Notes: a model not told the origin generated them from the letters alone. DNA of 47,048 nucleotides from a virus (IMGVR_UViG_2563366978_000001), one strand, 5' to 3'. Counted from the stretch's first letter, positions 5,407-47,048 are shown. Translations and numbers: made by a program.

Positions 5407-5598
5407 TTACTCCCCGTTCACCGAAAATTCACGATAGAAACGTTTCCACATACGATAAGTCTGCGCAAATTGTTCACCACGAAACATCGCCTTCCTGGCC
5501 TTCATGTTTTCCTTGTGAGACTTTCGGTCTATGAACCAAAACCATTGATGGAACACACAAAGCAAGAGACACAAAGATAATATCCAATCATTACCCAT
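5407..5598 (-). CDS. Small hypothetical membrane protein, about 63 aa (MGNDWILSLCLLLCVF...)
   Basis: In-frame ATG at 5596-5598 just beyond the repA stop; the longer track ORF would overlap repA. Confidence 0.4.
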   Translation of the reverse strand: MGNDWILSLCLLLCVFHQWFWFIDRKSHKENMKARKAMFRGEQFAQTYRMWKRFYREFSVNGE

Positions 5599-8500
5599 AG
5601 AAAGCGCCCTGCTCTTCGTAGCTGCATGAGCTATTCCCCGTAATGTATTCACGTAACCGCCGCAGCTCATTGCTGGAAAGGTGATCCATGAACTCTGTGA
5701 GGTACAGGGATGCAAACGTCATAGCTATGCTGGCTGATGACCATGATGACATAGTGGCCAACTCCTCACTGGAAAGCGCACTCATCGCCCAGGACTCAGG
5801 TACAGCCACTGGCAACACGGCCAAAGCCTCAGAAATTACTGAATGAGGGGCGTTTTGAACCTGCTCGTTTGTGGATCGCGTTTTATCATCCATATATATA
5901 TTGAGATCCAAATCGCGATCCATTTCGATGGCTGTCTTCTCGGCTTTACGCGTTTTTAGGGTTAGGCCATCTTTCTGACGCTGAACAAGAATATCCAGCA
6001 TAAATGCCGCTGATTCAGGCTCAACAAAACGCAAGGTTGGACGCTTATCGCCGTCTCTGCCGCGACGTTTACCTGTTTTAAGGCCAAGAGAGTCGCAAAT
6101 GTTTTTAAACAACGCTTCCGGCACTTTAGGCTTCCCTTTTGGCGTCATAAAACCACCAATGTGCAGAACGTTATTCAACAGGTCACGGCGTTCGGCTGTC
6201 ATGAGGTTATCTCGAGCGAATTTGAGACGCTCCTGAGTCGCCTCGCCGGTCATAGTCTCAGGGTTGATACCGCAGTCGATAAAGTACTGCCGGAGAGTTG
6301 CTGATTTAAGCGCATAGAAACCGCGCGCCCCGACTTCAACAGTAGGAGTAGCTTTTACCTTGTGATCGATTATTCCAGGGAATTTAGTTTTAAAGACATC
6401 ATCAGCCTGCTCGCGAGTCATCGCGGTCACTACAAAATATTGCCACTGTCCCGCCTGACGGTATGTGTAGGTAAAATTGATGGCTGCTTCTTCCCGGTCG
6501 TAACGACGAGCTGTTACCTCATCTAAAAGCATTGTTTCATAGCGGCGAACTTTGTCTCGAGCACCATCGAAATAGAATTTCAGCGTGCCTTCTTCAACCG
6601 GTAGTTTCAGTTCGTTTTCAATATCCCAGCGGACAAGTTTTGCCTGTTCTTCAAGCGTCAGCGCGCGTTTTTTTAGCAGTTCTTCACGCTCTGATTCTTG
6701 TGGTGTTTCTGTATTGAGGTGCAGATCCAGTGTCTGTTCCCACACAATATCCCGCGCTTCTTTACGCAGATCTTTACCGATATCATTCGCAGCATAATCG
6801 GTGGCCAGCGGTGATACCTTATAACCGTCGCTGTGCATGATGCAGATCATGTTGCTGGCGTAGTCGTTACGCGCAGTCGCTTCAATTGCGGCTGCTTTAA
6901 TTTTCATCCTGGTAAAGTCGGTATTGGCCACCCCCATTGATATACGGTCGCCATCGAAAACGACATCCGTAAGTTCACCGTTCATACCTGCGGTAGCAAG
7001 CAATGCCTGGGCGAATGCTCGTTCTATTTTTTGCGGGTCAGTTTCACGTTTTGCACGAGCTTTATCAAAGCCGATAATAAATTCTTTTGCTGTACGGTCG
7101 CGGCGTAGCATTTGCACTGCATCACTGGGTACAACTTCACCACAGAACATGCCGAAATGACGGTCAAAATGTTTTTGCTCAATCGACACGCCGGATGAAA
7201 TAGACGGGCTATAAATCAGGCCGTCGTATTTTTTGACCATCTTTTTCGGTTGATTGGTAAATGCTTCAACTTCTGGCTCTGGTTTGTTTTTCTGGTTTAC
7301 ACACAGAAATTTCTTACCAGGAAAATGCATTCTCAGGGTGGCTGTCACATCTTCTGCAAAGGTGGAGCTGTCGGTGGCCAACATGATTTTTTCGCCATCC
7401 GATACAGCTTTCACCACCTCGGTCATGATGCGATCTTTTTCTGTATAAAAAACCCGGATTGGCTCACCTGTTTCGCGGTTGCGAACATCAACAGGTAATT
7501 CAATTACGTGGATCTGCAGCCATGCCGGTAAACCTAGTTCTTCACGGCGTTTCATAGCCAGTTCAGCCAGGTCAACCAGCAGATCGTTCGCATCAGCATC
7601 CACCATGATTGGGTGTTGTTCCGTTCTGGCCAGCGCGTCAATTAGCGTATTGAATACAGCCACCGGGTTTTCCATAGCCCGACCGGAAAGAACGGCACGT
7701 AGCCCTTGTGTGGCCTCGTCAAAGCCAAAATAGTCGTGCTGGCGCATCAACGGTTGCCAGCAGTTTTTAACAATCGAGTTTATGCAGATGGTCAGTTTAC
7801 TGGCGTATGGAGCCATTTCCTGATAGCCAGGGTCCTGATAGTGCAGGATATCGGTTTTTACACCTTTTCCTTCTGTCATCATTTCCCACAGGCCACCAAT
7901 AAGGGAAACACGGTGAGCAACAGAGATACCACGTTCTGAGCTATGCATTAAAGGTCGTAACAATCCAGTAGATTTGCCGGAACCCATACCAGCACGAACG
8001 ATGACTATCCCCTGTAGTGATTGCACATACTTCAGGACGTCATCGGTCATTACCGAAGTTTCAAGACGCTTATAGGTGATATGTTGAGGACGTTTATTGG
8101 GATCAGTTATGCGTTCGCTGAATGAGCGCGGAGCCTGGGCAATACGGCACTTTTTATTCAGGCGACGGGCAATGTGGTCTTTTACCGTAGCGCGATAGAT
8201 ATTTTCCAGCCCCATTTCACGCAGAACGATGCAGAACATGTTAAATAAGTCTGACGGACTGTTAGGAACCGGACAGGTTAGCATGCCAATATCCACCGCT
8301 CTCAGCAGCTCTTTGGCAAAAGTACGACGGTTATCCCGCTTAATTGTCTTCAGGCGGTTGAGCGTCAGAGATAGCAAATCAGTGCCGGTTTTCAGGCGGT
8401 TTGCAGTTGCAAACAGTTGACGTGCTGTTTCACGAAGTCCACGCAGTTTGTGCAGGTCGTTGAAGTCACTGCACTCCATTTGCGGATCGTCTTCAAAAGT

Positions 8501-9586
8501 TGGATAGACGCAGCGGACATCGTTGAATTTCGATAAGATTTCATAGCCAGTCCGCAGGCCGGTATTCCCTTTTCCTTCTGTGGCTGATTTCCGGTCATTA
8601 TCCAGTGCGCAGGTGATTTTTGCCGCCGGGTACATGTTTACCAGTTGTTCCACAACATGAACCATGTTATTAGCGGATACAGCGACAACCACAGCGTCAA
8701 AGCGTTTATCTTTTTTCGTGGCAAGCCAGATGGATGCACCAGTAGCAAAACCTTCTGTAACAGCGATGTTTTGCGCCCCTTTTAGCTCACCGATAACAAA
8801 GCAGGCACCGACGAAATCGCCGCTGGTTACGGCGCTGGTCTGGTATTTTCCACCTTGTTTGTCGATTCGCTGCCAACCCACAATACGACCATCGTAACGA
8901 CCGTCCAGGTGAGCCAGAGGGATAGCCATATACGTGGTTGGCCCCCTGCTCCATTTTGCGCTGTCGTGACTGGTCACGCGACGCACATCACACGAATTAA
9001 AAACGTCACGAATACCTTTTTTAATCGCATATGGCCATGAGCCGTCTTCTGCAGGAGCATGTTCCCACGCGCTGTGGAATGCCAGCCATCCCAGCAAACG
9101 TTCATGGTCCATTTGGTTGTTTTTCAGGTCATTAATTCGTTTTTGTTCTTCACGGCGACGACGTGCTTCGGCCTGACGTTCTATTCTTGCCCGTTCTTCT
9201 TCCGGTTGTGCGACCACGGTCGCATTATTCCGTTGTTGCTCACGGCGATATTCAGAAAACAGGAAGGAGAAACCGCTCCATGAGCCAGCATCGCTGCCTT
9301 TATGGACGAAGTTAATGAACGGGTAATCAATCCCTTTGCTGTGTTCCAGCCGGGAGTAAATTTCTACGCGTCCTTTGAGGCTCTTTTCGAGAGCTTCTGG
9401 AGATGTTTTATTGTATGAAGAGTAACGCTCAACACCCCCGCGAGGGTTGAGTTGGATGTTGTCGGAACAGGCAGACCAGTTGATACCAGCCATCTGTGCC
9501 AGCTCGGTTAGTTCATCCCGTGCTGCTTCAATTAGCGAGAACGGATCGCTGCCAAAGCGATCCGCATAGAAATCGTTTAATGTCAT
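5591..9586 (-). CDS. repA: Replication protein RepA (primase-helicase), 1331 aa
   Basis: Single ORF of N15 RepA size (about 1324 aa from memory) in the N15 position between immunity region and telN side. Confidence 0.9.
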   Translation of the reverse strand: MTLNDFYADRFGSDPFSLIEAARDELTELAQMAGINWSACSDNIQLNPRGGVERYSSYNKTSPEALEKSLKGRVEIYSRLEHSKGIDYPFINFVHKGSDAGSWSGFSFLFSEYRREQQRNNATVVAQPEEERARIERQAEARRRREEQKRINDLKNNQMDHERLLGWLAFHSAWEHAPAEDGSWPYAIKKGIRDVFNSCDVRRVTSHDSAKWSRGPTTYMAIPLAHLDGRYDGRIVGWQRIDKQGGKYQTSAVTSGDFVGACFVIGELKGAQNIAVTEGFATGASIWLATKKDKRFDAVVVAVSANNMVHVVEQLVNMYPAAKITCALDNDRKSATEGKGNTGLRTGYEILSKFNDVRCVYPTFEDDPQMECSDFNDLHKLRGLRETARQLFATANRLKTGTDLLSLTLNRLKTIKRDNRRTFAKELLRAVDIGMLTCPVPNSPSDLFNMFCIVLREMGLENIYRATVKDHIARRLNKKCRIAQAPRSFSERITDPNKRPQHITYKRLETSVMTDDVLKYVQSLQGIVIVRAGMGSGKSTGLLRPLMHSSERGISVAHRVSLIGGLWEMMTEGKGVKTDILHYQDPGYQEMAPYASKLTICINSIVKNCWQPLMRQHDYFGFDEATQGLRAVLSGRAMENPVAVFNTLIDALARTEQHPIMVDADANDLLVDLAELAMKRREELGLPAWLQIHVIELPVDVRNRETGEPIRVFYTEKDRIMTEVVKAVSDGEKIMLATDSSTFAEDVTATLRMHFPGKKFLCVNQKNKPEPEVEAFTNQPKKMVKKYDGLIYSPSISSGVSIEQKHFDRHFGMFCGEVVPSDAVQMLRRDRTAKEFIIGFDKARAKRETDPQKIERAFAQALLATAGMNGELTDVVFDGDRISMGVANTDFTRMKIKAAAIEATARNDYASNMICIMHSDGYKVSPLATDYAANDIGKDLRKEARDIVWEQTLDLHLNTETPQESEREELLKKRALTLEEQAKLVRWDIENELKLPVEEGTLKFYFDGARDKVRRYETMLLDEVTARRYDREEAAINFTYTYRQAGQWQYFVVTAMTREQADDVFKTKFPGIIDHKVKATPTVEVGARGFYALKSATLRQYFIDCGINPETMTGEATQERLKFARDNLMTAERRDLLNNVLHIGGFMTPKGKPKVPEALFKNICDSLGLKTGKRRGRDGDKRPTLRFVEPESAAFMLDILVQRQKDGLTLKTRKAEKTAIEMDRDLDLNIYMDDKTRSTNEQVQNAPHSVISEALAVLPVAVPESWAMSALSSEELATMSSWSSASIAMTFASLYLTEFMDHLSSNELRRLREYITGNSSCSYEEQGAFYG
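5873..5922. other. Candidate replication origin inside the 3' part of repA: 8-bp inverted repeat GGATCGCG/CGCGATCC around an AT-rich core with three GATC sites
   Basis: Direct reading; N15-type origins are reported within the 3' part of repA (from memory). Confidence 0.3.
9209..9224. repeat. sopC-like palindrome TGCGACCACGGTCGCA (inside repA); putative centromere site
   Basis: 16-bp core of the palindrome family repeated five times in the window. Confidence 0.55.
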
Positions 9587-36224: not shown

Positions 36225-39200
36225 ATGGGTAAAGGCAGCAGTAAGGGGCATACCCCGCGCGAAGCGAAGGACAACCTGAAATCATCCCAGATGCTGAGCG
36301 TGATAGACGCCATCAGTGAAGGGCCGGTTGAAGGTCCGGTGGACGGATTAAAAAGTGTGCTGCTGAACAGTACGCCAGTGCTGGACAGTGAGGGGAATAC
36401 CAATATCTCCGGTGTCACGGTGGTGTTCCGGGCAGGTGAGCAGGAGCAGACACCGCCGGAGGGATTTGAATCCTCCGGCTCCGAGACGGTGCTGGGTACG
36501 GAAGTGAAGTACGACACGCCGATTACCCGGACCATCACGTCTGCAAACATCGACCGTCTGCGCTTTACCTTCGGTGTGCAGGCACTGGTGGAAACCACCT
36601 CAAAGGGGGACCGGAATCTGTCGGAAGTTCGCCTGCTGGTTCAGATACAGCGTAATGGTGGCTGGGTGACGGAAAAAGACATCACCATTAAGGGCAAAAC
36701 CACCTCACAGTATCTGGCCTCGGTGGTGGTGGATAACCTGCCGCCGCGCCCGTTTAATATCCGGATGCGCAGAATGACGCCGGACAGCACCACAGACCAG
36801 CTGCAGAACAAAACGCTCTGGTCGTCATACACCGAAATCATCGATGTGAAACAGTGCTACCCGAACACGGCACTGGTCGGCGTGCAGGTGGACTCGGAGC
36901 AGTTCGGCAGCCAGCAGGTGAGCCGTAATTATCATCTTCGCGGGCGCATTCTGCAGGTGCCGTCGAACTATAACCCGCAGACGCGGCAATACAGCGGTAT
37001 CTGGGACGGAACGTTTAAGCCAGCATACAGCAACAACATGGCCTGGTGTCTGTGGGATATGCTGACCCATCCGCGCTACGGCATGGGGAAACGTCTTGGT
37101 GCGGCAGATGTGGATAAATGGGCGCTGTATGTCATCGGCCAGTATTGCGACCAGTCGGTGCCGGATGGCTCTGGCGGCACGGAGCCGCGCATCACCTGTA
37201 ATGCGTACCTGGCCACACAGCGCAAGGCGTGGGATGTGCTCAGTGATTTCTGCTCGGCGATGCGCTGTATGCCGGTATGGAACGGGCAGACGCTGACATT
37301 CGTGCAGGACCGACCGTCGGATAAGGTGTGGACCTATAACCGCAGTAATGTGGTGATGCCGGATGATGGCGCGCCGTTCCGCTACAGCTTCAGCGCCCTG
37401 AAGGACCGCCATAATGCCGTTGAGGTGAACTGGATTGACCCGAACAACGGCTGGGAGACGGCGACAGAGCTTGTGGAGGACACGCAGGCCATTGCCCGTT
37501 ACGGTCGTAACGTCACGAAGATGGATGCCTTTGGCTGTACCAGCCGGGGGCAGGCACACCGCGCCGGGCTGTGGCTGATTAAAACGGAACTGCTGGAGAC
37601 GCAGACCGTGGATTTCAGCGTGGGTGCTGAAGGGCTTCGCCATGTACCGGGCGATGTCATTGAAATCTGCGATGATGACTATGCCGGTATCAGCACCGGT
37701 GGTCGCGTGCTGGCGGTGAACAGCCAGACCCGGACGCTGACGCTCGACCGTGAAATCACGCTGCCATCCTCCGGTACCACGCTGATAAGCCTGGTTGACG
37801 GAAGTGGTAATCCGGTCAGCGTGGAGGTTCAGTCCGTCACCGACGGACTTAAGGTGAAAGTGAATCGGGTTCCTGACGGCGTTGCAGAATACAGTGTGTG
37901 GGGGCTGAAGTTGCCGACGTTGCGTCAGCGCCTGTTCCGCTGTGTGAGTATCCGTGAGAACGATGACGGCACGTATGCCATCACTGCCGTGCAGCATGTA
38001 CCGGAAAAAGAAGCCATCGTGGATAACGGGGCGCACTTTGACGGCGACCAGAGCGGCACGGTGAATGGTGTCACGCCGCCAGCGGTGCAGCACCTGACCG
38101 CCGAAGTCACCGCAGACAGCGGGGAATACCAGGTGCTGGCGCGCTGGGATACGCCGAAGGTGGTGAAGGGCGTGAGCTTTATGCTTCGCCTGACCGTGGC
38201 AGCGGATGACGGCAGTGAGCGGCTGGTCAGCACGGCCCGGACGACGGAAACCACATACCGCTTCAGGCAGCTGGCTCTGGGAAATTACAGTCTGACAGTC
38301 CGGGCGGTAAATGCGTGGGGGCAGCAGGGCGATCCGGCGTCGGTATCGTTCCGGATTGCCGCACCGGCAGCACCATCGCGGATTGAGCTGACGCCGGGCT
38401 ATTTTCAGATAACCGCCACGCCGCATCTTGCGGTTTATGATCCGACTGTACAGTTTGAGTTCTGGTTCTCGGAAAATCGGATTGCGGATATCAGGCAGGT
38501 TGAAACCAGCGCGCGTTATCTTGGCACGGCGCTGTACTGGATAGCCGCCAGTATCAATATCAAACCGGGCCATGATTATTATTTTTACGTTCGCAGTGTG
38601 AACACCGTCGGCAAATCGACATTCGTGGAGGCTGTCGGCCGGGCGAGCGATGATGCGGAAGGTTACCTGGATTTTTTCAAAGGCCAGATAACCGAATCCC
38701 ATCTCGGCAAGGAGCTGCTGGAAAAAGTCGAGCTGACGGAGGATAACGCCAGCAAACTGGAGGAGTTCTCGAAAGAGTGGAAAGACGCCAACGATAAATG
38801 GAATGCCATGTGGGGTGTCAAAATTGAGCAGACCGAAGACGGCAAACATTATGTCGCGGGGCTTGGCCTCAGCATGGAGGATACAGAGGAAGGCAAACTG
38901 AGCCAGTTCCTGGTTGCCGCTAACCGTATCGCGTTTATTGACCCGGCAAACGGGAATGAAACGCCGATGTTTGTGGCGCAGGGCAACCAGATATTCATGA
39001 ACGAAGTGTTCCTGAAGTATCTGACGGCTCCCACCATTACCAGTGGCGGCAATCCTCCGGTATTTTCCCTGACACCGGACGGGCGGCTGACGGCGAAAAA
39101 TGCCGATATCAGCGGTAACGTGAATGCGAACTCCGGGACGCTCAATAATGTCACGATTAACGAGAACTGTCGGGTTCTGGGAAAACTGTCCGCGAACCAG

Positions 39201-39620
39201 ATTGAAGGCGATCTCGTTAAAACAGTGGGCAAAGCTTTCCCCCGGGACTCCCGTGCACCGGAGCGGTGGCCATCAGGGACTATTACCGTCAGGGTTTATG
39301 ACGATCAGTCGTTTGACCGGCAAATTGTTATTCCAGCGGTGGCTTTCTGCGGTGCCAGACATGAGCGGGAGAATAGCGATACTTATTCGTCATGCCGCCT
39401 GATAGTGAAGAAAAACGGGGCTGAAATTTATAACCGAACGGCTCTGGATAATACTCTGATTTACACGGGTGTTATTGATATGCCTGCAGGCAGTGGTGTA
39501 ATGACACTGGAGTTTTCTGTATCAGCATGGTGGGTAAATGGTTGGTATCCCACAGCAAGTATCAGCGATTTGCTGGTTGTTGTGATGAAGAAAGCCACTG
39601 CAGGCATCAGTATCAGCTGA
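36225..39620 (+). CDS. J: Central tail fibre / host specificity protein J
   Basis: 1131 aa, lambda gpJ-like. Confidence 0.95.
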
Positions 39621-39639
39621 ATTTTATAACCCCAATACG

Positions 39640-39663
39640 GGCGTCAGAAATGACGCCTTTTTT
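39640..39663 (+). terminator. Intrinsic terminator after J (GGCGTCA-GAAA-TGACGCC then T6)
   Basis: Stem-loop plus T-tract. Confidence 0.65.
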
Positions 39664-39687
39664 ATTGCAGAAAAGCGAGAGGTAATT

Positions 39688-40287
39688 ATGCGTAAATTAT
39701 GTGCTGTTATTCTGTCCGCAGTAGTCTGGCTGGTTGCCGCTGGTACGCCAGCGAGCGCAGCAGAGCATCAGTCCACACTAAGCGCCGGGTATCTTCAGAC
39801 CCATACTGATATGCCAGGCAGTGATGACCTGAAGGGCATTAACGTGAAATACCGTTATGAATTTACGGACACGCTGGGGCTGGTGACGTCATTCAGTTAT
39901 GCCAATGCCAAAGATGAGCAAAAAACGCATTACAGCGATACCCGCTGGCATGAAGATTCCGTGCGTAACCGCTGGTTCAGCATGATGGCGGGGCCATCTG
40001 TACGCGTGAATGAATGGTTCAGTGCTTATGCGATGGCGGGTATGGCTTACAGCCGTGTGTCGACCTTCTCCGGGGATTATCTCCGCGTAACTGACAACAA
40101 GGGGAAAACGCACGATGTGCTGACCGGAAGTGATGACGGTCGCCACAGCAACACGTCTCTGGCGTGGGGGGCTGGCGTGCAGTTTAACCCGACCGAATCC
40201 GTGGCCATTGACCTTGCTTATGAAGGTTCCGGCAGTGGTGACTGGCGCACTGACGGTTTCATCGTGGGTGTCGGTTATAAATTCTGA
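39688..40287 (+). CDS. lom: Outer membrane protein Lom (Ail/Lom family)
   Basis: Signal peptide; C-terminus AYEGSGSGDWRTDGFIVGVGYKF matches lambda Lom. Confidence 0.9.
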   Translation: MRKLCAVILSAVVWLVAAGTPASAAEHQSTLSAGYLQTHTDMPGSDDLKGINVKYRYEFTDTLGLVTSFSYANAKDEQKTHYSDTRWHEDSVRNRWFSMMAGPSVRVNEWFSAYAMAGMAYSRVSTFSGDYLRVTDNKGKTHDVLTGSDDGRHSNTSLAWGAGVQFNPTESVAIDLAYEGSGSGDWRTDGFIVGVGYKF

Positions 40288-40313
40288 TTAGCCAGGTAAC
40301 ACAGTGTTATGAC

Positions 40314-40341
40314 AGCCCGCCGGTTCAGGCGGGCTTTTTTG
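40314..40341 (+). terminator. Intrinsic terminator after lom (AGCCCGCC-GGTTCA-GGCGGGCT then T6)
   Basis: Stem-loop plus T-tract. Confidence 0.65.
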
Positions 40342-40351
40342 TGGAGTGGAT

Positions 40352-42727
40352 ATGGCAGCAGTAAAAATCTCAGGTGTGCTGAAAGATGGTGCGGGAAAAC
40401 CAATACAGAACTGCACTATTCAACTGAAGGCAAAGCGTAACAGCACCACGGTACTGGTGAACACGGTGGCCTCTGAAAATCCTGATGAAGCCGGGCGTTA
40501 CAGTATGGACGTTGAGTATGGTCAGTACAGCGTCATCCTGTGGATTGAGGGTTCTCAGCCATCACATGTTGGGACCATTACCGTCTATGAAGGTTCCTGT
40601 CCGGGGACGCTGAATGATTTTCTCGGTGCCATGACGGAAGATGATGTCATGCCGGAGGCATTGCGCCGTTTTCAGGAAATGGTGGAAGAAGCGGCACGCA
40701 ACGCCGAAGCCGCCTCTCAGAGCGCAGCGGCGGCAAAGAAATCCGAAACTGCAGCGGCATCATCGAAGAACGCGGCGAAAACCTCAGAAACGAATGCAGC
40801 TAACAGCGCACAGGCGGCAGCGACCTCACAGACTGCATCGGCAAACTCCGCGACAGCAGCCAAAAAATCAGAAACCAACGCGAAAAACAGCGAGACAGCC
40901 GCAAAGACGAGCGAAACCAACGCAAAGTCCAGCCAGACGGCAGCGAAAACCAGCGAAACGAATGCCAAAGCCAGTGAAACTGCGGCGAAAAGCAGTCAGG
41001 ATGCAGCAGCCGAAAGCGAGAGCGCGGCAGCTGGTTCTGCGACTTCAGCTGCTGGATCAGCAACTGCTGCGGCTAACAGTCAGAAAGCAGCGAAGACGAG
41101 TGAAACTAACGCAAAGTCCAGCCAGACGGCAGCGAAGACCAGCGAAACGAATGCCAAAGCCAGCGAAACTGCGGCGAAAAGCAGTCAGGATGCAGCAGCC
41201 GAAAGCGAGAGTGCTGCAGCTGGTTCTGCAAGCGCGGCTGCTGCTTCTGCCACTGCATCAGCTAACAGTCAAAAAGCAGCAAAAACCAGTGAAACCAACG
41301 CAAAGGTGAGCGAAACAGCGGCTGCGAACTCAGCGAAAGCATCGGCAGCAAGCCAGACGGCAGCTAAAGCAAGCGAAGATGCAGCCAGAGAGTACGCAAG
41401 CCAGGCTGCGGAGCCGTATAAATATGTCTTACAGCCGCTGCCTGATGTGTGGATACCATTTAACGATTCGCTGGATATGATTACGGGCTTTTCGCCGTCA
41501 TATAAAAAGATTGTTATTGGTGATGATGAAATAACGATGCCTGGCGACAAGGTTGTTAAGTTTAAACGCGCATCGAAAGCAACCTATATTAATAAATCTG
41601 GTGTGCTGACAGAGGCTGCCATTGACGAGCCACGGTTTGAACGTGATGGCCTGCTTATTGAGGGGCAAAGAACGAACTACATGCTCAATTCGGAAAGCCC
41701 TGCCAGTTGGGGGCGATCGTCAAATATGGATGTTCCCGAAACCGGGACGGATAGTTTTGGTTTTACCTATGGAAAGTTCGTCTGTAACGATTCTCTGATT
41801 GGGCAAACCTCAGCCATTAATATGGCATCAATTGCTGCAACAAAGTCAGTTGATGTCTCAGGCGATAATAAACACGTGACAACCTCATGTCGTTTTAAAA
41901 CAGAACTGCAGGTAAGGTTGCGTATCCGGTTTGATAAATATGACGGTAGCGCAACAACTTTTCTTGGTGATGCGTATATTGATACACAAACGCTTGAAAT
42001 TAATATGACAGGCGGTGCTGCCTCAAGGATTACAGCGAGAGTCAGAAAGGACGAAGCTACCGGATGGATTTTTGCAGAGGCAACAATTCAGGCAATTGAT
42101 GGGGAGTTAAAAATAGGCTCTCAGATACAGTATTCTCCTAAGCAGAGCGGGGCAACCGTATCTGGTGACTATATTTATCTGGCCACCCCACAAGTAGAAG
42201 ATGGGCCTTGTGTATCATCTTTTATTATATCAGGAGCGACGGCGGCGACCCGCGCAAGCGATATAGTTACAGTTCCAATTAAGAATAATCTTTATAAGAT
42301 TCCTTTTACGGTTCTTTGTGAGGTACATAAGAACTGGTATAAAACGCCAAATGCAGCGCCACGTGTTTTTGATACCGGCGGTCATCAAACCGGAGCGGCT
42401 ATTATTCTTGGCTTCGGTCGTTCAACAGATTACGACGGATTTCCTTATTGCGATATTGGAGGAGCTAACAGACGGGTAAACGAAAACGCATCGCTTGAAA
42501 AAATGGTTATGGGGATGCGTGTAAAGTCAGAGCAGTCTACGTGCTCAGTAAGTAACGGGCATATATCCAGCGAAACAAAAACCACATGGTCCTGTATTCA
42601 GAACACCGCAATTATCCGTATTGGAGGCCAGACTACAGCCGGGTTACGTCATTTATTTGGTCATGTCAGGAATTTCAGAATATGGCACAAGGCATTGACT
42701 GATGCTCAGGTGGGGGAGTCAATCTAA
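40352..42727 (+). CDS. stf: Side tail fibre: lambda Stf-like N-terminus, repetitive Ala/Ser/Thr-rich shaft, different C-terminal receptor-binding domain (LamG-like motif NFRIWHKALTDAQV)
   Basis: N-terminal about 120 aa match lambda Stf; internal 189-bp tandem repeat; C-terminus unlike lambda. Confidence 0.8.
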   Translation: MAAVKISGVLKDGAGKPIQNCTIQLKAKRNSTTVLVNTVASENPDEAGRYSMDVEYGQYSVILWIEGSQPSHVGTITVYEGSCPGTLNDFLGAMTEDDVMPEALRRFQEMVEEAARNAEAASQSAAAAKKSETAAASSKNAAKTSETNAANSAQAAATSQTASANSATAAKKSETNAKNSETAAKTSETNAKSSQTAAKTSETNAKASETAAKSSQDAAAESESAAAGSATSAAGSATAAANSQKAAKTSETNAKSSQTAAKTSETNAKASETAAKSSQDAAAESESAAAGSASAAAASATASANSQKAAKTSETNAKVSETAAANSAKASAASQTAAKASEDAAREYASQAAEPYKYVLQPLPDVWIPFNDSLDMITGFSPSYKKIVIGDDEITMPGDKVVKFKRASKATYINKSGVLTEAAIDEPRFERDGLLIEGQRTNYMLNSESPASWGRSSNMDVPETGTDSFGFTYGKFVCNDSLIGQTSAINMASIAATKSVDVSGDNKHVTTSCRFKTELQVRLRIRFDKYDGSATTFLGDAYIDTQTLEINMTGGAASRITARVRKDEATGWIFAEATIQAIDGELKIGSQIQYSPKQSGATVSGDYIYLATPQVEDGPCVSSFIISGATAATRASDIVTVPIKNNLYKIPFTVLCEVHKNWYKTPNAAPRVFDTGGHQTGAAIILGFGRSTDYDGFPYCDIGGANRRVNENASLEKMVMGMRVKSEQSTCSVSNGHISSETKTTWSCIQNTAIIRIGGQTTAGLRHLFGHVRNFRIWHKALTDAQVGESI

Positions 42728-43008
42728 TGAAAGATTTAACACTCAAATTTGCCGACAGGGCCGACTTTTCGGCCTTTATGGATAGCACTGGCTATTATGA
42801 TGACGAGTCGATGCAGGATGATATTCTTATTGACGTGATAGGTAACGTGTACAAAGAAACCGGAGAACTGACTGAAGATGGCGAACCGGTATGTGTTAAG
42901 GAAGACGGATATTTTGTAAACGTGCGCATCATTAATGATTCGCAAATATCGTCATTATTCGATGAATACGTGGTTGCTGTTGAGCATCAACTTCGTGGCT
43001 GGATGTGA
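42727..43008 (+). CDS. Hypothetical acidic protein, 93 aa, between the two fibre genes
   Basis: ORF coupled to the stf stop. Confidence 0.45.
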   Translation: MKDLTLKFADRADFSAFMDSTGYYDDESMQDDILIDVIGNVYKETGELTEDGEPVCVKEDGYFVNVRIINDSQISSLFDEYVVAVEHQLRGWM

Positions 43009-43017
43009 GGAAGAATA

Positions 43018-44058
43018 ATGGCTACATCGACAGTAATTCCTGATGACATCAAAACGCTAAAATCCGATGTTAGCAAATTAAAAAACGATCAAGGAAGCTA
43101 CGTAACAAAATCATATGTAGACAGCAAAAATGAAACCGTTAATGACTGGTCTGCTGCATGGTATCAGCAGGTACTGCCAACTAGCGGAGCTATATTTGGG
43201 CGAAAACTTCGCTCAACTCACAGGACGGCAGGTGTTGAGGATGCGTATTGCGAACTATACCTTAAAAAATGGATAGACAGCCCAGGGAACGCAATGGCGC
43301 GCCTTAACCTGAACGATAACGGTGAAAATATTTGCTGGGATTTTACCAACCTTTACGGCGGAACAATGATCTTCCCTGGTACTTCAGGCTATCTGAAAAT
43401 GGGGAACTGTCTCATGTCGTATAGTGTGCGGGGAAGTAACGCGCTTATTAAGTTTGATTACACCGACACATTACAGATCAAATATGCTAATCATGGGTCA
43501 ACCATGACATTAACCACACAGGGATCCGCTCACGCTGGCGTAACAACTAGACTATGGGGTAATTCTAGCCGTCCGGTTGTTTATGAAGTTGGCGTAGATG
43601 AGGCTCTGTATATGTTCTACGCACAGAAAACTACCAGCAATACCTACGAATTAACGGTTAACGGCGCGTGCAATGCAAGTGCATTTAATCAAGGCTCTGA
43701 CCGGGATCTGAAAGACAATATTCAGGTGATCGATAATGCAACCGACCGCATTCGTAAAATGAACGGCTATACATACACGCTTAAAGAAAACGGTATGCCT
43801 TACGCTGGTGTTATTGCACAAGAAACCCTGGAAGCCATCCCCGAAGCCGTAGGGTCTATGATGAAATATCCAGACGGCGGGAGTGGATTAGATGGAGAAG
43901 AAGGTGAACGGTATTACACTGTAGATTATTCTGGTGTTACTGGCTTGCTTGTTCAGGTAGCCAGAGAGTCAGACGACAGAATAACAGCACTGGAAGAAGA
44001 AAACGCAGAATTAAAACAAAGATTATCTGCAATTGAGGCGGCGCTTGCGTCTAAATAA
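43018..44058 (+). CDS. Tail fibre/spike-like protein with C-terminal intramolecular chaperone (S74-type) domain
   Basis: C-terminal ...SDRDLKDNIQVIDNATDRIRKMNGYTY... and terminal coiled coil typical of self-cleaving fibre chaperone domains. Confidence 0.6.
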   Translation: MATSTVIPDDIKTLKSDVSKLKNDQGSYVTKSYVDSKNETVNDWSAAWYQQVLPTSGAIFGRKLRSTHRTAGVEDAYCELYLKKWIDSPGNAMARLNLNDNGENICWDFTNLYGGTMIFPGTSGYLKMGNCLMSYSVRGSNALIKFDYTDTLQIKYANHGSTMTLTTQGSAHAGVTTRLWGNSSRPVVYEVGVDEALYMFYAQKTTSNTYELTVNGACNASAFNQGSDRDLKDNIQVIDNATDRIRKMNGYTYTLKENGMPYAGVIAQETLEAIPEAVGSMMKYPDGGSGLDGEEGERYYTVDYSGVTGLLVQVARESDDRITALEEENAELKQRLSAIEAALASK

Positions 44059-44085
44059 TATTAAGGGGCCGAGCGCCCCGTTTTA

Positions 44086-44388
44086 TTGGGTGGGATGAAA
44101 ATGGATATAACACCTTTCCTTCATGCACTTTGTGCTGTGGCTGCGCAGGTACTGGTTGGTCTTTTTACCGGAAACTGGGCTTACGGGGCGATAGCCGGTT
44201 GTACATTCTTCATTGCGCGGGAACACACCCAGGCAGAATATCGCTGGATTGAAATGTTCGGGCATGGCAAGCGTATGAATATGCCGTGGTGGGGCGGTTT
44301 TGATCTACGCGCGTGGGATGTAGCAAGCCTGATGGATTTTGCTGTGCCGGTGGTGGCGTGTTTACTTGTATTTATATTTTTTGAATAA
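44086..44388 (+). CDS. Small membrane protein, about 100 aa (possible superinfection-exclusion type cargo)
   Basis: Two hydrophobic segments; AT-rich; function is a guess. Confidence 0.4.
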   Translation: MGGMKMDITPFLHALCAVAAQVLVGLFTGNWAYGAIAGCTFFIAREHTQAEYRWIEMFGHGKRMNMPWWGGFDLRAWDVASLMDFAVPVVACLLVFIFFE

Positions 44389-44393
44389 AATTA

Positions 44394-44428
44394 AGACCCC
44401 ATCTATAACTGATGGGGTCTATTCTATT
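44394..44428. terminator. Hairpin AGACCCCATC-TATAACT-GATGGGGTCT between convergent genes; likely bidirectional terminator
   Basis: 10-bp stem flanked by A/T-rich sequence on both sides. Confidence 0.6.
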
Positions 44429-44436
44429 TTCTGCTA

Positions 44437-45426
44437 TTAGTTATTTTTTACATCGGAAGAATTTCCAAACGCCTCCTCAAGAATAGATTCAATTTTACTC
44501 ATTAGGTGCGATGGTATTTTTCTGTTATCTAATTTTAATGTTGTGAAATTTTTCCCATATTTCGCCACAACACCGTCTCCATATTTCTTTTCCCTTTTCT
44601 CTCCATGTGAATTGTTTTTCTCAACAATAATGAAATCATGAAGAGCCTGTATTATTCTTTGCGCATCTAAACTTTCACCTGATTTTTTCATCCTCAGCAA
44701 CTGAGATGCAGCATTTTTCATGGCTGCTTCCTGTCCCTGATATGCTTTAAAAAGAGCGTCTCCTGCTCTGGCTGATAACTCACCAGGATGGTTAAATATT
44801 GCCAATATATCTTTAGGTAAACCGGCTGTATTAATACATCGGCTGATAATATTTCTATCCACGCCTTCGGCTTCAGCTAAAGATTTTACGTTACCGTCAA
44901 ATTCATGGAGCCTTCGCAGGTATCTTTTCCCCCTTTCATAGGCGCTGATAGGTCTATAGTCGTTGCCTATCTGCGATAACCATTGCATTTGTTCATCATC
45001 TAAATCGCCAATAAGAACACGATAATCGCATCCAGTTATAATGGCTGCTTTACGTCTTCGAGAACCATCAGCTACTTCAACAATACCTGACACTTTTCTT
45101 GCGAAAGCCGGATTTTGTTGCCCAGAAGTTAGAAAAGATGGAATTAAATCAGCTAGAGAAGATTCATTTAATAAATCTTGATCACGCTCATTACCTAGCC
45201 ATACCATTGTTGCCATTTCTACTTTATCTGCGGGGATCGTTTCTAACTTAAAGTTAACATTACGTCCGCATACTGGCAAAGTTATGCTATTACCGGTTAA
45301 TGAACTCAGTTGACGTTTTAAATCACCAACCATAGGTGATACCGGCTGATGTTCAGGTGCATGATGATTATTACTCATAATGCGATTAATATCCGGAGCA
45401 TTTTTTAGAAGAGAGCGTTGTTTCAT
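44437..45426 (-). CDS. sopB: Partition protein SopB (ParB family)
   Basis: 329 aa; conserved block ITLPVCGR...SGNERDQ...DGSRRRKAA...GNDYRP as in F SopB. Confidence 0.95.
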   Translation of the reverse strand: MKQRSLLKNAPDINRIMSNNHHAPEHQPVSPMVGDLKRQLSSLTGNSITLPVCGRNVNFKLETIPADKVEMATMVWLGNERDQDLLNESSLADLIPSFLTSGQQNPAFARKVSGIVEVADGSRRRKAAIITGCDYRVLIGDLDDEQMQWLSQIGNDYRPISAYERGKRYLRRLHEFDGNVKSLAEAEGVDRNIISRCINTAGLPKDILAIFNHPGELSARAGDALFKAYQGQEAAMKNAASQLLRMKKSGESLDAQRIIQALHDFIIVEKNNSHGEKREKKYGDGVVAKYGKNFTTLKLDNRKIPSHLMSKIESILEEAFGNSSDVKNN

Positions 45427-46592
45427 TCTTCGTTCTCCCAGCGAGGTTTTATTAGATCATCAAAAATTTCTCGACAAACAGGGTCCCATATAGAGACGGC
45501 ATTTCTCCATGCATTAAGTGTTGAACGCTGGTTTGCCGCTTGTTCAAATACTGTTCGCATTTTTATCTGACCTTTACCTACTTCATCGGTAACGCGTACA
45601 ACCTGACGTAATACCATTGATCCCCATGTATTTCTTATTTGCTCTTCCATCCATCGTGATTGATTTCCTGTAGTGAGACTATATTTAGTCAGAAGCAAGC
45701 GAACGGTCGGCTCAAATCCGCCTAGGTCAACGCTTTCTAGGAGATCGAGAAGCATTGTGAAAAACTGTAGAACAGAGGCGTAATCAAATAATTCTGCAGG
45801 GGTAGCAACAACGATAACGTCAGCTGCGCAAACAACGTTAATGGTTCCTGTACCGAGGTTTGGAGCACTATCTATAACGATAACATCGTAGTTATCCCAA
45901 ACTGATTCTATAGCTGCGCGTAGCATCAGGTGAGGAGGGTGAGGCAATTTACCCTGAGCATGATATTGCATGAGATCTGTTTCTATACGGTGTAAAGCTA
46001 GGCAGCTAGGAATAATGTCCAGTCCAGGCCAGCATGTTGGTTTTATAGCATATTCAGCGTTATCGCGTTCGCCCAAGTAAAATGGCAGTAAAGTATCCTC
46101 GGCATGTATATGTAAATCAGGTACATAACCGTGATACATGGAGGCTGTTCCCTGAGGATCGTTACCTTCAACTAAAAGAACACGATGACCTTGTAATGCT
46201 AGCCATTGTGCCTGATGTACTGCAGACGATGTTTTATAAACGCCGCCTTTGTGTGACATAACAGCAAGCACAACTGGGTTTTTATCTTGTGGCCGTTGGT
46301 TTGGGTTGCCAAAAACAGCTCGCATACTATTGATTTGATCTATGGTATAACCGGCACGACGTTCAACTCTTCCTCTCATTTCAAAGTCAGGTGCAGGTAA
46401 ACGCCCGTTCTTCTCAGCATCTCTTATTGCTTGAGGAGTTACACCAATTAAATCTGCTACTTCAGTTATCCCCCATCTACGCGTGATACGCCGAGCTTCA
46501 GGACTATCATCACCGAATTGAGCTATAGCAATTGCTTGGGTCATTTCTTGACCGCGCGTAACACAATCTTGTAATAACTTTTTCAAAGACAT
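45423..46592 (-). CDS. sopA: Partition ATPase SopA (ParA family)
   Basis: 389 aa; Walker A KGGVYKTS and long blocks identical to F SopA. Confidence 0.95.
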   Translation of the reverse strand: MSLKKLLQDCVTRGQEMTQAIAIAQFGDDSPEARRITRRWGITEVADLIGVTPQAIRDAEKNGRLPAPDFEMRGRVERRAGYTIDQINSMRAVFGNPNQRPQDKNPVVLAVMSHKGGVYKTSSAVHQAQWLALQGHRVLLVEGNDPQGTASMYHGYVPDLHIHAEDTLLPFYLGERDNAEYAIKPTCWPGLDIIPSCLALHRIETDLMQYHAQGKLPHPPHLMLRAAIESVWDNYDVIVIDSAPNLGTGTINVVCAADVIVVATPAELFDYASVLQFFTMLLDLLESVDLGGFEPTVRLLLTKYSLTTGNQSRWMEEQIRNTWGSMVLRQVVRVTDEVGKGQIKMRTVFEQAANQRSTLNAWRNAVSIWDPVCREIFDDLIKPRWENEE

Positions 46593-46613
46593 ACTGTCAT
46601 CTCCAGCTTATAA

Positions 46614-46691
46614 CTTTGCTTAATAATTATTGCTTTGCATATTTCTAGCAAATTGACATAGAAAAAGCAAAGTAAAACAAAAAAGGCAAAG
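46614..46691. promoter_or_regulatory. sopAB promoter/operator: CTTTGC hexamers at 46614-46619 and 46633-46638, inverted GCAAAG at 46667-46672 and 46686-46691
   Basis: Direct reading; F SopA autoregulates through CTTTGC repeats (from memory). Confidence 0.5.
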
Positions 46692-46882
46692 ACGAAGATT
46701 TGAGCAAAATCATCTTTTGTTTTATCCCTTAAATGCAAAAAAAAACAACGACAGGCTCATAACAAATTGATAATAAAGGATTTTTTAAAAGAAAGGAAAT
46801 CGTATAAAACTAGTGAAACATGATGAAAATCATCAATGAGATACGTTTCCTCTATTTATTCTCCTAATCCTCACCAACAAAA

Positions 46883-47022
46883 GAACACAATCAAAGATCG
46901 TAAAACAACAATAATAATTCACACAAAATAAAGAACACAAATACAGAAAACAACAACACAATAAAAACAAGAGAACACAAGCTATAAATATTACACCAAT
47001 AGAGAACACTAATCAAGAACAT
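46883..47022. repeat. Right telomere-proximal repeat array: AGAACAC at 46883, 46933, 46973, 47003, and AGAACAT at 47016
   Basis: Direct reading; spacing shortens toward the end (50, 40, 30, 13 bp). Confidence 0.65.
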
Positions 47023-47048
47023 ATCAGCACATAATTCCCCATTATACG
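47022..47048. other. Half of the telomere resolution palindrome (telO/telRL-like): TATCAGCACATAATTCCCCATTATACG
   Basis: Matches the N15 telRL half-site TATCAGCACACAATTGCCCATTATACGC as I remember it with 2 mismatches; the window ends one base short of the predicted symmetry centre. Confidence 0.8.

Follow-up and report, generated by a model that had tools for sequence, protein, structure and literature searches.

Work on phage lambda (Ur-lambda) has reported binding of the side tail fiber protein Stf to OmpC and to unmodified O16 O-antigen (PMC12617516, PMC11990801), and the Stf collar (chain 9e7m_Ta) binds gpV/gpM in the virion (PMC12617516). Fibers composed of two proteins have also been described. 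Among them are the branched LtfA/LtfB fibers of phage DT57C, in which genetic evidence provides a precedent for a fiber attached by its conserved N-terminus (PMC4728585), and the fiber of the Tequintavirus IrisVonRoten (Bas32), for which an AlphaFold-Multimer model places a distal fiber (Gp24) on a proximal fiber (Gp22) with a protruding "galectin-like" C-terminal domain (PMC11990801). A third kind of system is the head-spike fiber of the gene transfer agent RcGTA, which was shown experimentally to bind capsular polysaccharide (PMC10218006; PMC7296036). In this study, we analyzed positions 40352-44388 of a viral sequence of 47,048 nucleotides (IMGVR_UViG_2563366978_000001; the whole stretch is referred to below as the window), which hold four open reading frames (ORFs) encoding an Stf of 791 residues, a 93-residue protein (orf93), a 346-residue Peptidase_S74 protein (orf346) and a membrane protein of ~97 residues. 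We put at roughly 60% the probability that this locus of an N15-like linear phage-plasmid is a horizontally exchanged side tail fiber cassette seated on an Stf stem of the lambda type, and that it specifies a two-part or branched fiber.

All four ORFs are present at full length and are densely packed on the + strand, in the order that had been described in the original prediction made from the DNA: Stf, the 93-residue ORF, a 346-residue protein with an intramolecular chaperone domain, and a small membrane protein. The stf gene runs to 42727 from either a GTG at 40346 or an ATG at 40352, the latter having GGAG 5 nucleotides upstream and agreeing with the lambda start. The ATG of orf93 (42727-43008, + strand) overlaps the Stf stop codon (TAATG) and has GGGGGAG upstream of it, whereas orf346 (43018-44058, + strand) starts with an ATG 9 nucleotides past the orf93 stop and has a ribosome-binding site of its own. 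The membrane protein gene, also on the + strand, ends at 44388, with candidate starts at TTG 44086, ATG 44095 (44095-44388, 97 residues) and ATG 44101 (95 residues). These are real genes rather than chance ORFs, since each has hundreds of conserved homologs and the module recurs in phages and Escherichia coli genomes with a nucleotide identity of 95-97%. We also considered a degenerate cassette, and rejected that possibility, as none of the four ORFs is truncated and each matches an intact phage gene.

The N-terminal part of Stf is clearly of the lambda type. Its collar/anchor domain (40352-40747, + strand) matched Pfam phage_tail_N (PF08400) at residues 5-134 (E 1.3e-63, 213 bits versus a cut-off of 26.6) and, in a profile search, the Ur-lambda collar chain 9e7m_Ta (E 2e-24). 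The collar is followed by an Ala/Ser/Thr-rich shaft (40748-41431, + strand) that aligns with the lambda Stf shaft up to residue 275, and the alignment with lambda Stf as a whole is confined to residues 5-275, with 59.6% identity. The resemblance to lambda thus comprises the collar, the coiled-coil shaft and the location of stf after J and lom. The shaft DNA has a strong AT skew and a GC content of 0.55-0.57, and Tandem Repeats Finder identified in it 2.2-2.6 copies of a 189-nucleotide (63-residue) tandem repeat (40886-41385) with nested periodicities of 42 and 21 nucleotides. Stf homologs differ in length at these repeats, which fit the range of 597-742 residues found for the full-length, non-partial homologs among the matches listed.

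Beyond the shaft, the relationship to lambda ends abruptly. The DNA match with ESCO3 begins at query position 1087 (nucleotide 41432); for VogelGryff and phage 21, the start is at 1087-1089 (nucleotides 41432-41434). These starts define a homology breakpoint at nucleotide 41432, or Stf residue 363. This breakpoint coincides with a fall in GC content from 0.55-0.57 to 0.43-0.46 (41250-41750), and the GC content stays low until 44.4 kb. From residue 363 onward, Stf consists of a foreign C-terminal module of ~430 residues (41432-42727, residues 363-793, + strand) that is of lower GC content and has no counterpart in lambda. Neither lambda orf-314, the C-terminal half of lambda Stf, nor Tfa gave a match in the whole window by tblastn (best E 0.5-1.5), and a tfa gene was not found anywhere in it. 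The claims that Stf keeps the lambda anchor, carries a different C-terminal domain and is followed by other genes in place of tfa were therefore borne out, and the receptor-binding swap relative to lambda stands, since no identity with the lambda Stf end or with the lambda downstream genes was found. The distal half of lambda Stf and lambda Tfa are unrelated to what the window has in their place, a lectin-like Stf end and a separate, probably distal, protein.

The swapped module comprises a conserved joint, a sugar-binding-type beta-sandwich, a variable region and a weak LamG-like end. NCBIfam GTA_spike_fiber (NF048003) matched Stf residues 437-637 (50.9 bits versus a cut-off of 36), and the RcGTA protein Rcc01080 matched the Stf end both as a single PDB sequence (E 3e-7) and in a profile search (E 7.6e-8). 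The homologous domain comprises ~240 residues. Rcc01080, which binds capsular polysaccharide, is a monomer that decorates the head through an N-terminal Leu-Gly peptide anchor and is not the end of a trimeric tail fiber. An AlphaFold2 monomer of Stf residues 369-793, based on an alignment of 19 sequences, was confident for residues 448-618, where the core has a carbohydrate-binding-module fold. This core, a carbohydrate-binding-type beta-sandwich, has its homolog in the RcGTA head-spike fiber. For the last ~50 residues there was a weak match to Laminin_G_3 (PF13385; 19.2 bits versus a cut-off of 27.6, E 0.0015), and this LamG-like end could not be confirmed because the last 175 residues were modeled with a model confidence score (pLDDT) of <50. 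The alignment depth available for modeling was limited, as the 120 top listed homologs of the Stf end and of orf93 are all at least 75-82% identical.

Comparison of eight diverged cassettes revealed that Stf residues 364-443 are nearly invariant and that residues 766-785 are conserved, whereas residues 444-618 and 678-745 are variable. The near-invariance of the two constant stretches across phages of different hosts could be taken to mean that the module is a structural docking platform and that all specificity resides in orf346. We regard that as improbable, given a core with a carbohydrate-binding-module fold and homology to a capsule-binding GTA fiber, the strong variation of residues 444-618 and 678-745 among cassettes, and the retention of the module in phage-21-type and rV5-like phages that have no distal protein. 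A constant frame with variable surfaces is more in keeping with a binding domain than with an adaptor alone.

The Stf end does not travel alone. A homolog of orf93 lies directly 3' of the homologous fiber domain in lambdoid, T1-like, Queuovirinae, T5-like and rV5-like phages, and it followed the Stf end in every case examined, namely ESCO3, tunus, VogelGryff, phage 21, four metagenomic contigs, a T5-like contig, IrisVonRoten and CarlMeissner. The pairing holds with or without a third gene. Because the pair recurs in five lineages, two of which lack the third gene, orf93 appears functionally tied to the Stf C-terminal domain, and from this gene linkage alone it is probably a partner or chaperone of that domain. 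This would be comparable to lambda, in which a small downstream gene likewise probably assists the fiber end. The orf93 protein is small and acidic (pI 4.05) and belongs to PHROG 1361, and its homologs, grouped in 50 clusters by a HMMER search, are always free-standing proteins of roughly 90-125 residues. The rV5-like myovirus CarlMeissner (L155 824-5595) has a 1479-residue lateral tail fiber that ends in the Stf-end domain (45% identity) and is followed by a 110-residue orf93 homolog, demonstrating that the domain and its partner cross the divide between siphoviruses and myoviruses.

The third protein, orf346, has two parts. Peptidase_S74 (PF13884), its sole Pfam domain, matched residues 227-278 of 346 (52 bits versus a cut-off of 22) at the start of a predicted intramolecular chaperone/S74 autoprotease domain (residues 227-346; 43696-44058, + strand), and the orf346 model has a C-terminal helix at residues 304-345. 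The sequence S227-D-R-D-L-K232-D-N-I lines up with S1264-D-A-R-L-K1269-N-D-V of T5 pb1, so the Ser/Lys dyad is intact; across 22 orf346 homologs, S227 and K232 each show a conservation of 90% or more. In T5 pb1, cleavage depends on Ser1264 and exposes the receptor-binding tip (PMC4690869). By analogy, mature orf346 would be residues 1-226 after the predicted self-cleavage (43018-43695, + strand), comprising an N-terminal docking motif, a variable middle and a fiber segment similar to T4 gp34, whose C-terminal region gave a profile match at positions 159-233 to roughly residues 150-225 of orf346 (E 3e-8). As the mean pLDDT of the AlphaFold2 monomer was 57 and a Foldseek search of that model against the PDB returned nothing at E <= 0.001, we draw no conclusion on the fold of the receptor-binding part.

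In ESCO3 and VogelGryff, homologs of orf346 are annotated as "endosialidase chaperone" and "putative lateral tail fiber chaperone", and with the chaperone domain as its sole Pfam domain the protein could on that basis be a trans-acting chaperone of Stf and not a structural receptor-binding protein. We consider this very improbable, as S74 chaperones work in cis on the polypeptide upstream of them (PMC4690869), and orf346 has a 226-residue upstream part with the gp34-like segment and allelic variation of a type that is typical for receptor-binding regions. In addition, orf346 is missing from phage-21-type and rV5-like cassettes, which nonetheless assemble the same Stf end.

The allelic variation of orf346 has a distinctive pattern. 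Its relatives have in common the first ~25 residues, the stretch before the chaperone and the chaperone itself, whereas the middle is exchanged from one allele to another. Otherwise unrelated alleles and different phage families have the N-terminal motif M-A-T-x-T-V-I-P-x-D-I-x-x-L-K in common, and its core, T-x-I-P-x-D-I-x-x-L-K, was present in all third-gene alleles examined. Among IMG/VR loci with close orf93 relatives and downstream sequence, a third gene started 13 nucleotides past orf93 with MATSTVIPxDIxTLK in 78 out of 78, its product being of the 346-residue type in ~52 and of ~234 residues in 26. A third gene with the same motif was also found in divergent contigs (4/4 and 5/5) and in the virulent isolates ESCO3, tunus, VogelGryff and IrisVonRoten. 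The gene is optional, being missing in CarlMeissner and in all 47 informative phage-21-type loci, in which the membrane protein gene follows orf93 directly. The orf346 type itself never occurred apart from the pair of Stf C-terminal domain and orf93 in the loci examined. The alternative allele, of ~234-245 residues (L064 4292-4996, L018 4292-4996, L005 5632-6369; the T1-like phage tunus has it as well), shares this N-terminal motif and also has an S74-like chaperone, a tip that is very small and repeating heptads of a coiled coil.

The original prediction called orf346 a second fiber. A distal or branch subunit on the Stf end is a more likely role for it than an independent fiber. An independent fiber, attached directly to the tail tip or baseplate so that the virion would have two separate fiber sets, would be in keeping with a separate gene that has its own ribosome-binding site and its own trimerization chaperone, and many phages do have several independent receptor-binding proteins (PMC11990801). 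Nevertheless, we think this unlikely, as the N-terminal motif of orf346 occurs in lambdoid, T1-like, Queuovirinae and T5-like phages in spite of their different tail-tip proteins and, as noted, orf346 always accompanied the other two. A motif that is kept across unrelated tails and always stands beside both the Stf end and orf93 points to an N-terminus that must bind one or the other. Most likely, then, orf346 would dock on the Stf end as a distal or branch fiber, as has been predicted for Gp22 and Gp24 of IrisVonRoten.

IrisVonRoten is the closest of the described systems. Its Gp22, Gp23 and Gp24 are encoded in the same gene order and are homologous to the Stf end, orf93 and orf346, respectively, with 52% identity in the Stf C-terminal region, 38% for orf93 (E 7e-24), and the same motif and an S74 chaperone in the third protein. 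The same gene order was also found in T1-like, Queuovirinae and T5-like contigs. There are differences, however, as IrisVonRoten has a T5-type N-terminus with LtfC where the window Stf has a lambda-type collar, and no membrane protein gene lies downstream. Its distal protein is also longer (574 residues), T-shaped and equipped with two receptor-binding domains, whereas the 346-residue orf346 has an unrelated middle. The LtfA/LtfB proteins of DT57C and gp14/gp15 of phiEco32 are likewise two-protein fibers with S74 chaperones in which the second protein is attached by a short conserved N-terminus (PMC4728585). The likeness considered here is one of architecture, and there are differences: in DT57C, LtfA and LtfB both end in a chaperone domain, and the DT57C paper describes no 93-residue gene. 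In phage 21/mEp460-type cassettes, the Stf end is 63% identical, the orf93 homolog 54% and the membrane protein gene about 92%, whereas the third gene is missing and Stf residues 678-745 have diverged (L002 3237-5878, L099-L148).

Potentially, these components assemble as follows. The stem would be formed by three Stf chains, whose C-terminal lectin-like domains would bind a surface polysaccharide (O-antigen, lipopolysaccharide or capsule), and orf93 would act on, or remain bound to, the lectin-like domain as an assembly partner similar to lambda Tfa. With the help of its chaperone domain orf346 would trimerize, after which the chaperone would cleave itself off at Ser227 and expose the tip. 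The mature 226-residue trimer would use its first ~25 residues, which are conserved, to dock on the Stf end or on orf93, giving a two-part or branched fiber whose second receptor specificity could be exchanged. The membrane protein would lie outside the fiber; its gene, the last of the late operon, would be accessory, with a possible role in lysogenic conversion or exclusion. A broader combination of these ideas is tentative, and we think it somewhat doubtful as a whole. According to it, the ~92-residue protein would be a new class of fiber partner (a chaperone or joint subunit) for lectin domains of the GTA head-spike type; the Stf end and orf346 would form a truly branched fiber with two independent glycan specificities, the distal arm being exchanged by recombination at the N-terminal motif; and the membrane protein would be an exclusion or conversion factor travelling with temperate receptor-binding genes.

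Several results weigh against this proposal of a two-part or branched fiber. The domain searches and structure predictions that had been suggested as a check on both fiber proteins identified domains, but the models were largely of low confidence, as evidenced by the mean score of the orf346 monomer given above and by a Stf C-terminal model that is confident for 170 of 425 residues. Our own structure work was with monomers, and the published support for docking, which comes from a homolog, is itself a prediction (PMC11990801). The PDB entry resolves only residues 2-10 of Rcc01080 (PMC7296036); since the homologous region lies outside them, its link to Stf is one of sequence and not of structure. 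For orf93, there was no Pfam, NCBIfam, PADLOC or PDB match and no fold match, no fusion to a fiber protein was found among the 50 clusters of the exhaustive HMMER search, and all of the evidence for its role is gene linkage. No clear co-variation was seen between Stf residues and the presence or N-terminal subtype of the third gene; the signal was not clean because the differences of phage 21 in residues 364-443 are partly common to IrisVonRoten, which has the third gene. Finally, the promoter scan revealed no promoter-like site upstream of the membrane protein gene; in the region as a whole, promoter-like sites were fewer than in shuffled controls.

The membrane protein has hydrophobic stretches at about residues 4-42 and 73-96 and belongs to PHROG 1443, and it had no match to a Pfam, NCBIfam or PADLOC family or to a defense system. 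Its gene is bracketed by hairpins, of which the first, lying between the gene and orf346, is a short GC hairpin that has a T-rich tail (44065-44079, + strand; GGGGCCGAGCGCCCC then GTTTTATT) and the second is a bidirectional terminator-like hairpin with a 10-bp stem (44394-44420, scored on both strands) that separates the module from the convergent sopB. The gene is directly downstream of the cassette in at least 110 temperate loci, and a 39%-identical homolog follows the tail fiber assembly gene of phiHAP-1, both of which would be in keeping with the protein being a functional part of the fiber system, such as an assembly factor or a matched receptor-masking exclusion protein. We do not favor that explanation and rate its chances as low, since the gene was not found in any virulent-phage cassette examined, its product is 79-97% conserved in temperate loci regardless of which fiber alleles accompany it, and hairpins set it apart. 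In addition, the P22-like phage Gally has a homolog after its tailspike and just before its integrase (L095 3501-3788; L096 3501-3806 for the Gally/phiHAP-1 set) in the absence of a Stf cassette, and because of this occurrence after a P22-like tailspike we treat the membrane protein gene as a separable accessory gene. Compared with a moron, an accessory gene transcribed on its own, it shows flanking hairpins and, in Gally, occurrence apart from the cassette, with no promoter-like site found upstream of it. The phage phiHAP-1 is itself a linear-plasmid prophage. In Queuovirinae, the place of the membrane protein gene is taken by a Gly-rich protein of ~220-236 residues with a Cys-rich C-terminus (L004 7795-8505; L006 6818-7483).

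The host-range swap is real but ordinary, as the module is common, has been sequenced many times already and is nothing new in kind, and its architecture has already been discussed for a homolog, that of IrisVonRoten. All four genes occur in Tritos, 2G7b, HannyBb, PhiR63_1, PhiR46_1 and E. coli prophages at 94.5-96.7% nucleotide identity, with values of 94.5-95% for Tritos, HannyBb, 2G7b and PhiR63_1 and of up to 96.7% for chromosomal prophages. Among 5,426 complete E. coli genomes, 383 have at least 80% of the module, and the Stf end was found in 217 phage records that include lambdoid phages, Drexlerviridae, Dhillonvirus, Queuovirinae, T5-like and rV5-like phages. The cassette therefore probably sets part of the adsorption specificity of widespread E. 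coli prophages and phage-plasmids, and virulent phages of the T1-like, Queuovirinae, T5-like and rV5-like groups have it as well. Its parts, a fixed stem, a lectin-like end with a dedicated 93-residue partner and an exchangeable distal protein with a fixed docking motif, should be useful for host-range prediction and fiber engineering. The Tritos-type lambdoid phages differ from the window in being integrative, with int/xis downstream of the module, whereas in the window the module adjoins sopBA in a linear N15-like phage-plasmid.

Taken as a whole, the window has the appearance of a complete N15-like linear phage-plasmid and not of a strict lambda relative. It encodes a protelomerase with four TelK domains (149-2050, + strand), a replication-type ORF of 1331 residues (5591-9586, - strand) and the partition genes sopB and sopA (44437-46592, - strand), which are convergent with the tail fiber module and of which sopB (44437-45426, - strand) has a SoPB_HTH Pfam match. 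The closest plasmid match was an E. coli plasmid with 96.7% identity across 39000-47048. Upstream of the module, in the J-lom interval (36225-40287), the central fiber J is 88.9% identical to lambda J and the Ail/Lom protein (39688-40287, Pfam) is 44% identical to lambda Lom. Between lom and stf there is a terminator-like hairpin (40314-40335, + strand) with an 8-bp GC-rich stem followed by TTTTTT. The corresponding interval of N15 has other genes (gene 21, genes 22-23, cor, gene 25 and a umuD-like gene), indicating that the whole region from J to sopB has been swapped relative to N15. This N15-like plasmid-prophage has thus acquired a J-lom-stf host-range region of lambdoid type that replaced the one N15 itself has. 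An antisense ORF of 674 residues inside J (36825-38849, - strand) is most likely a by-product of locally high GC content rather than a gene.

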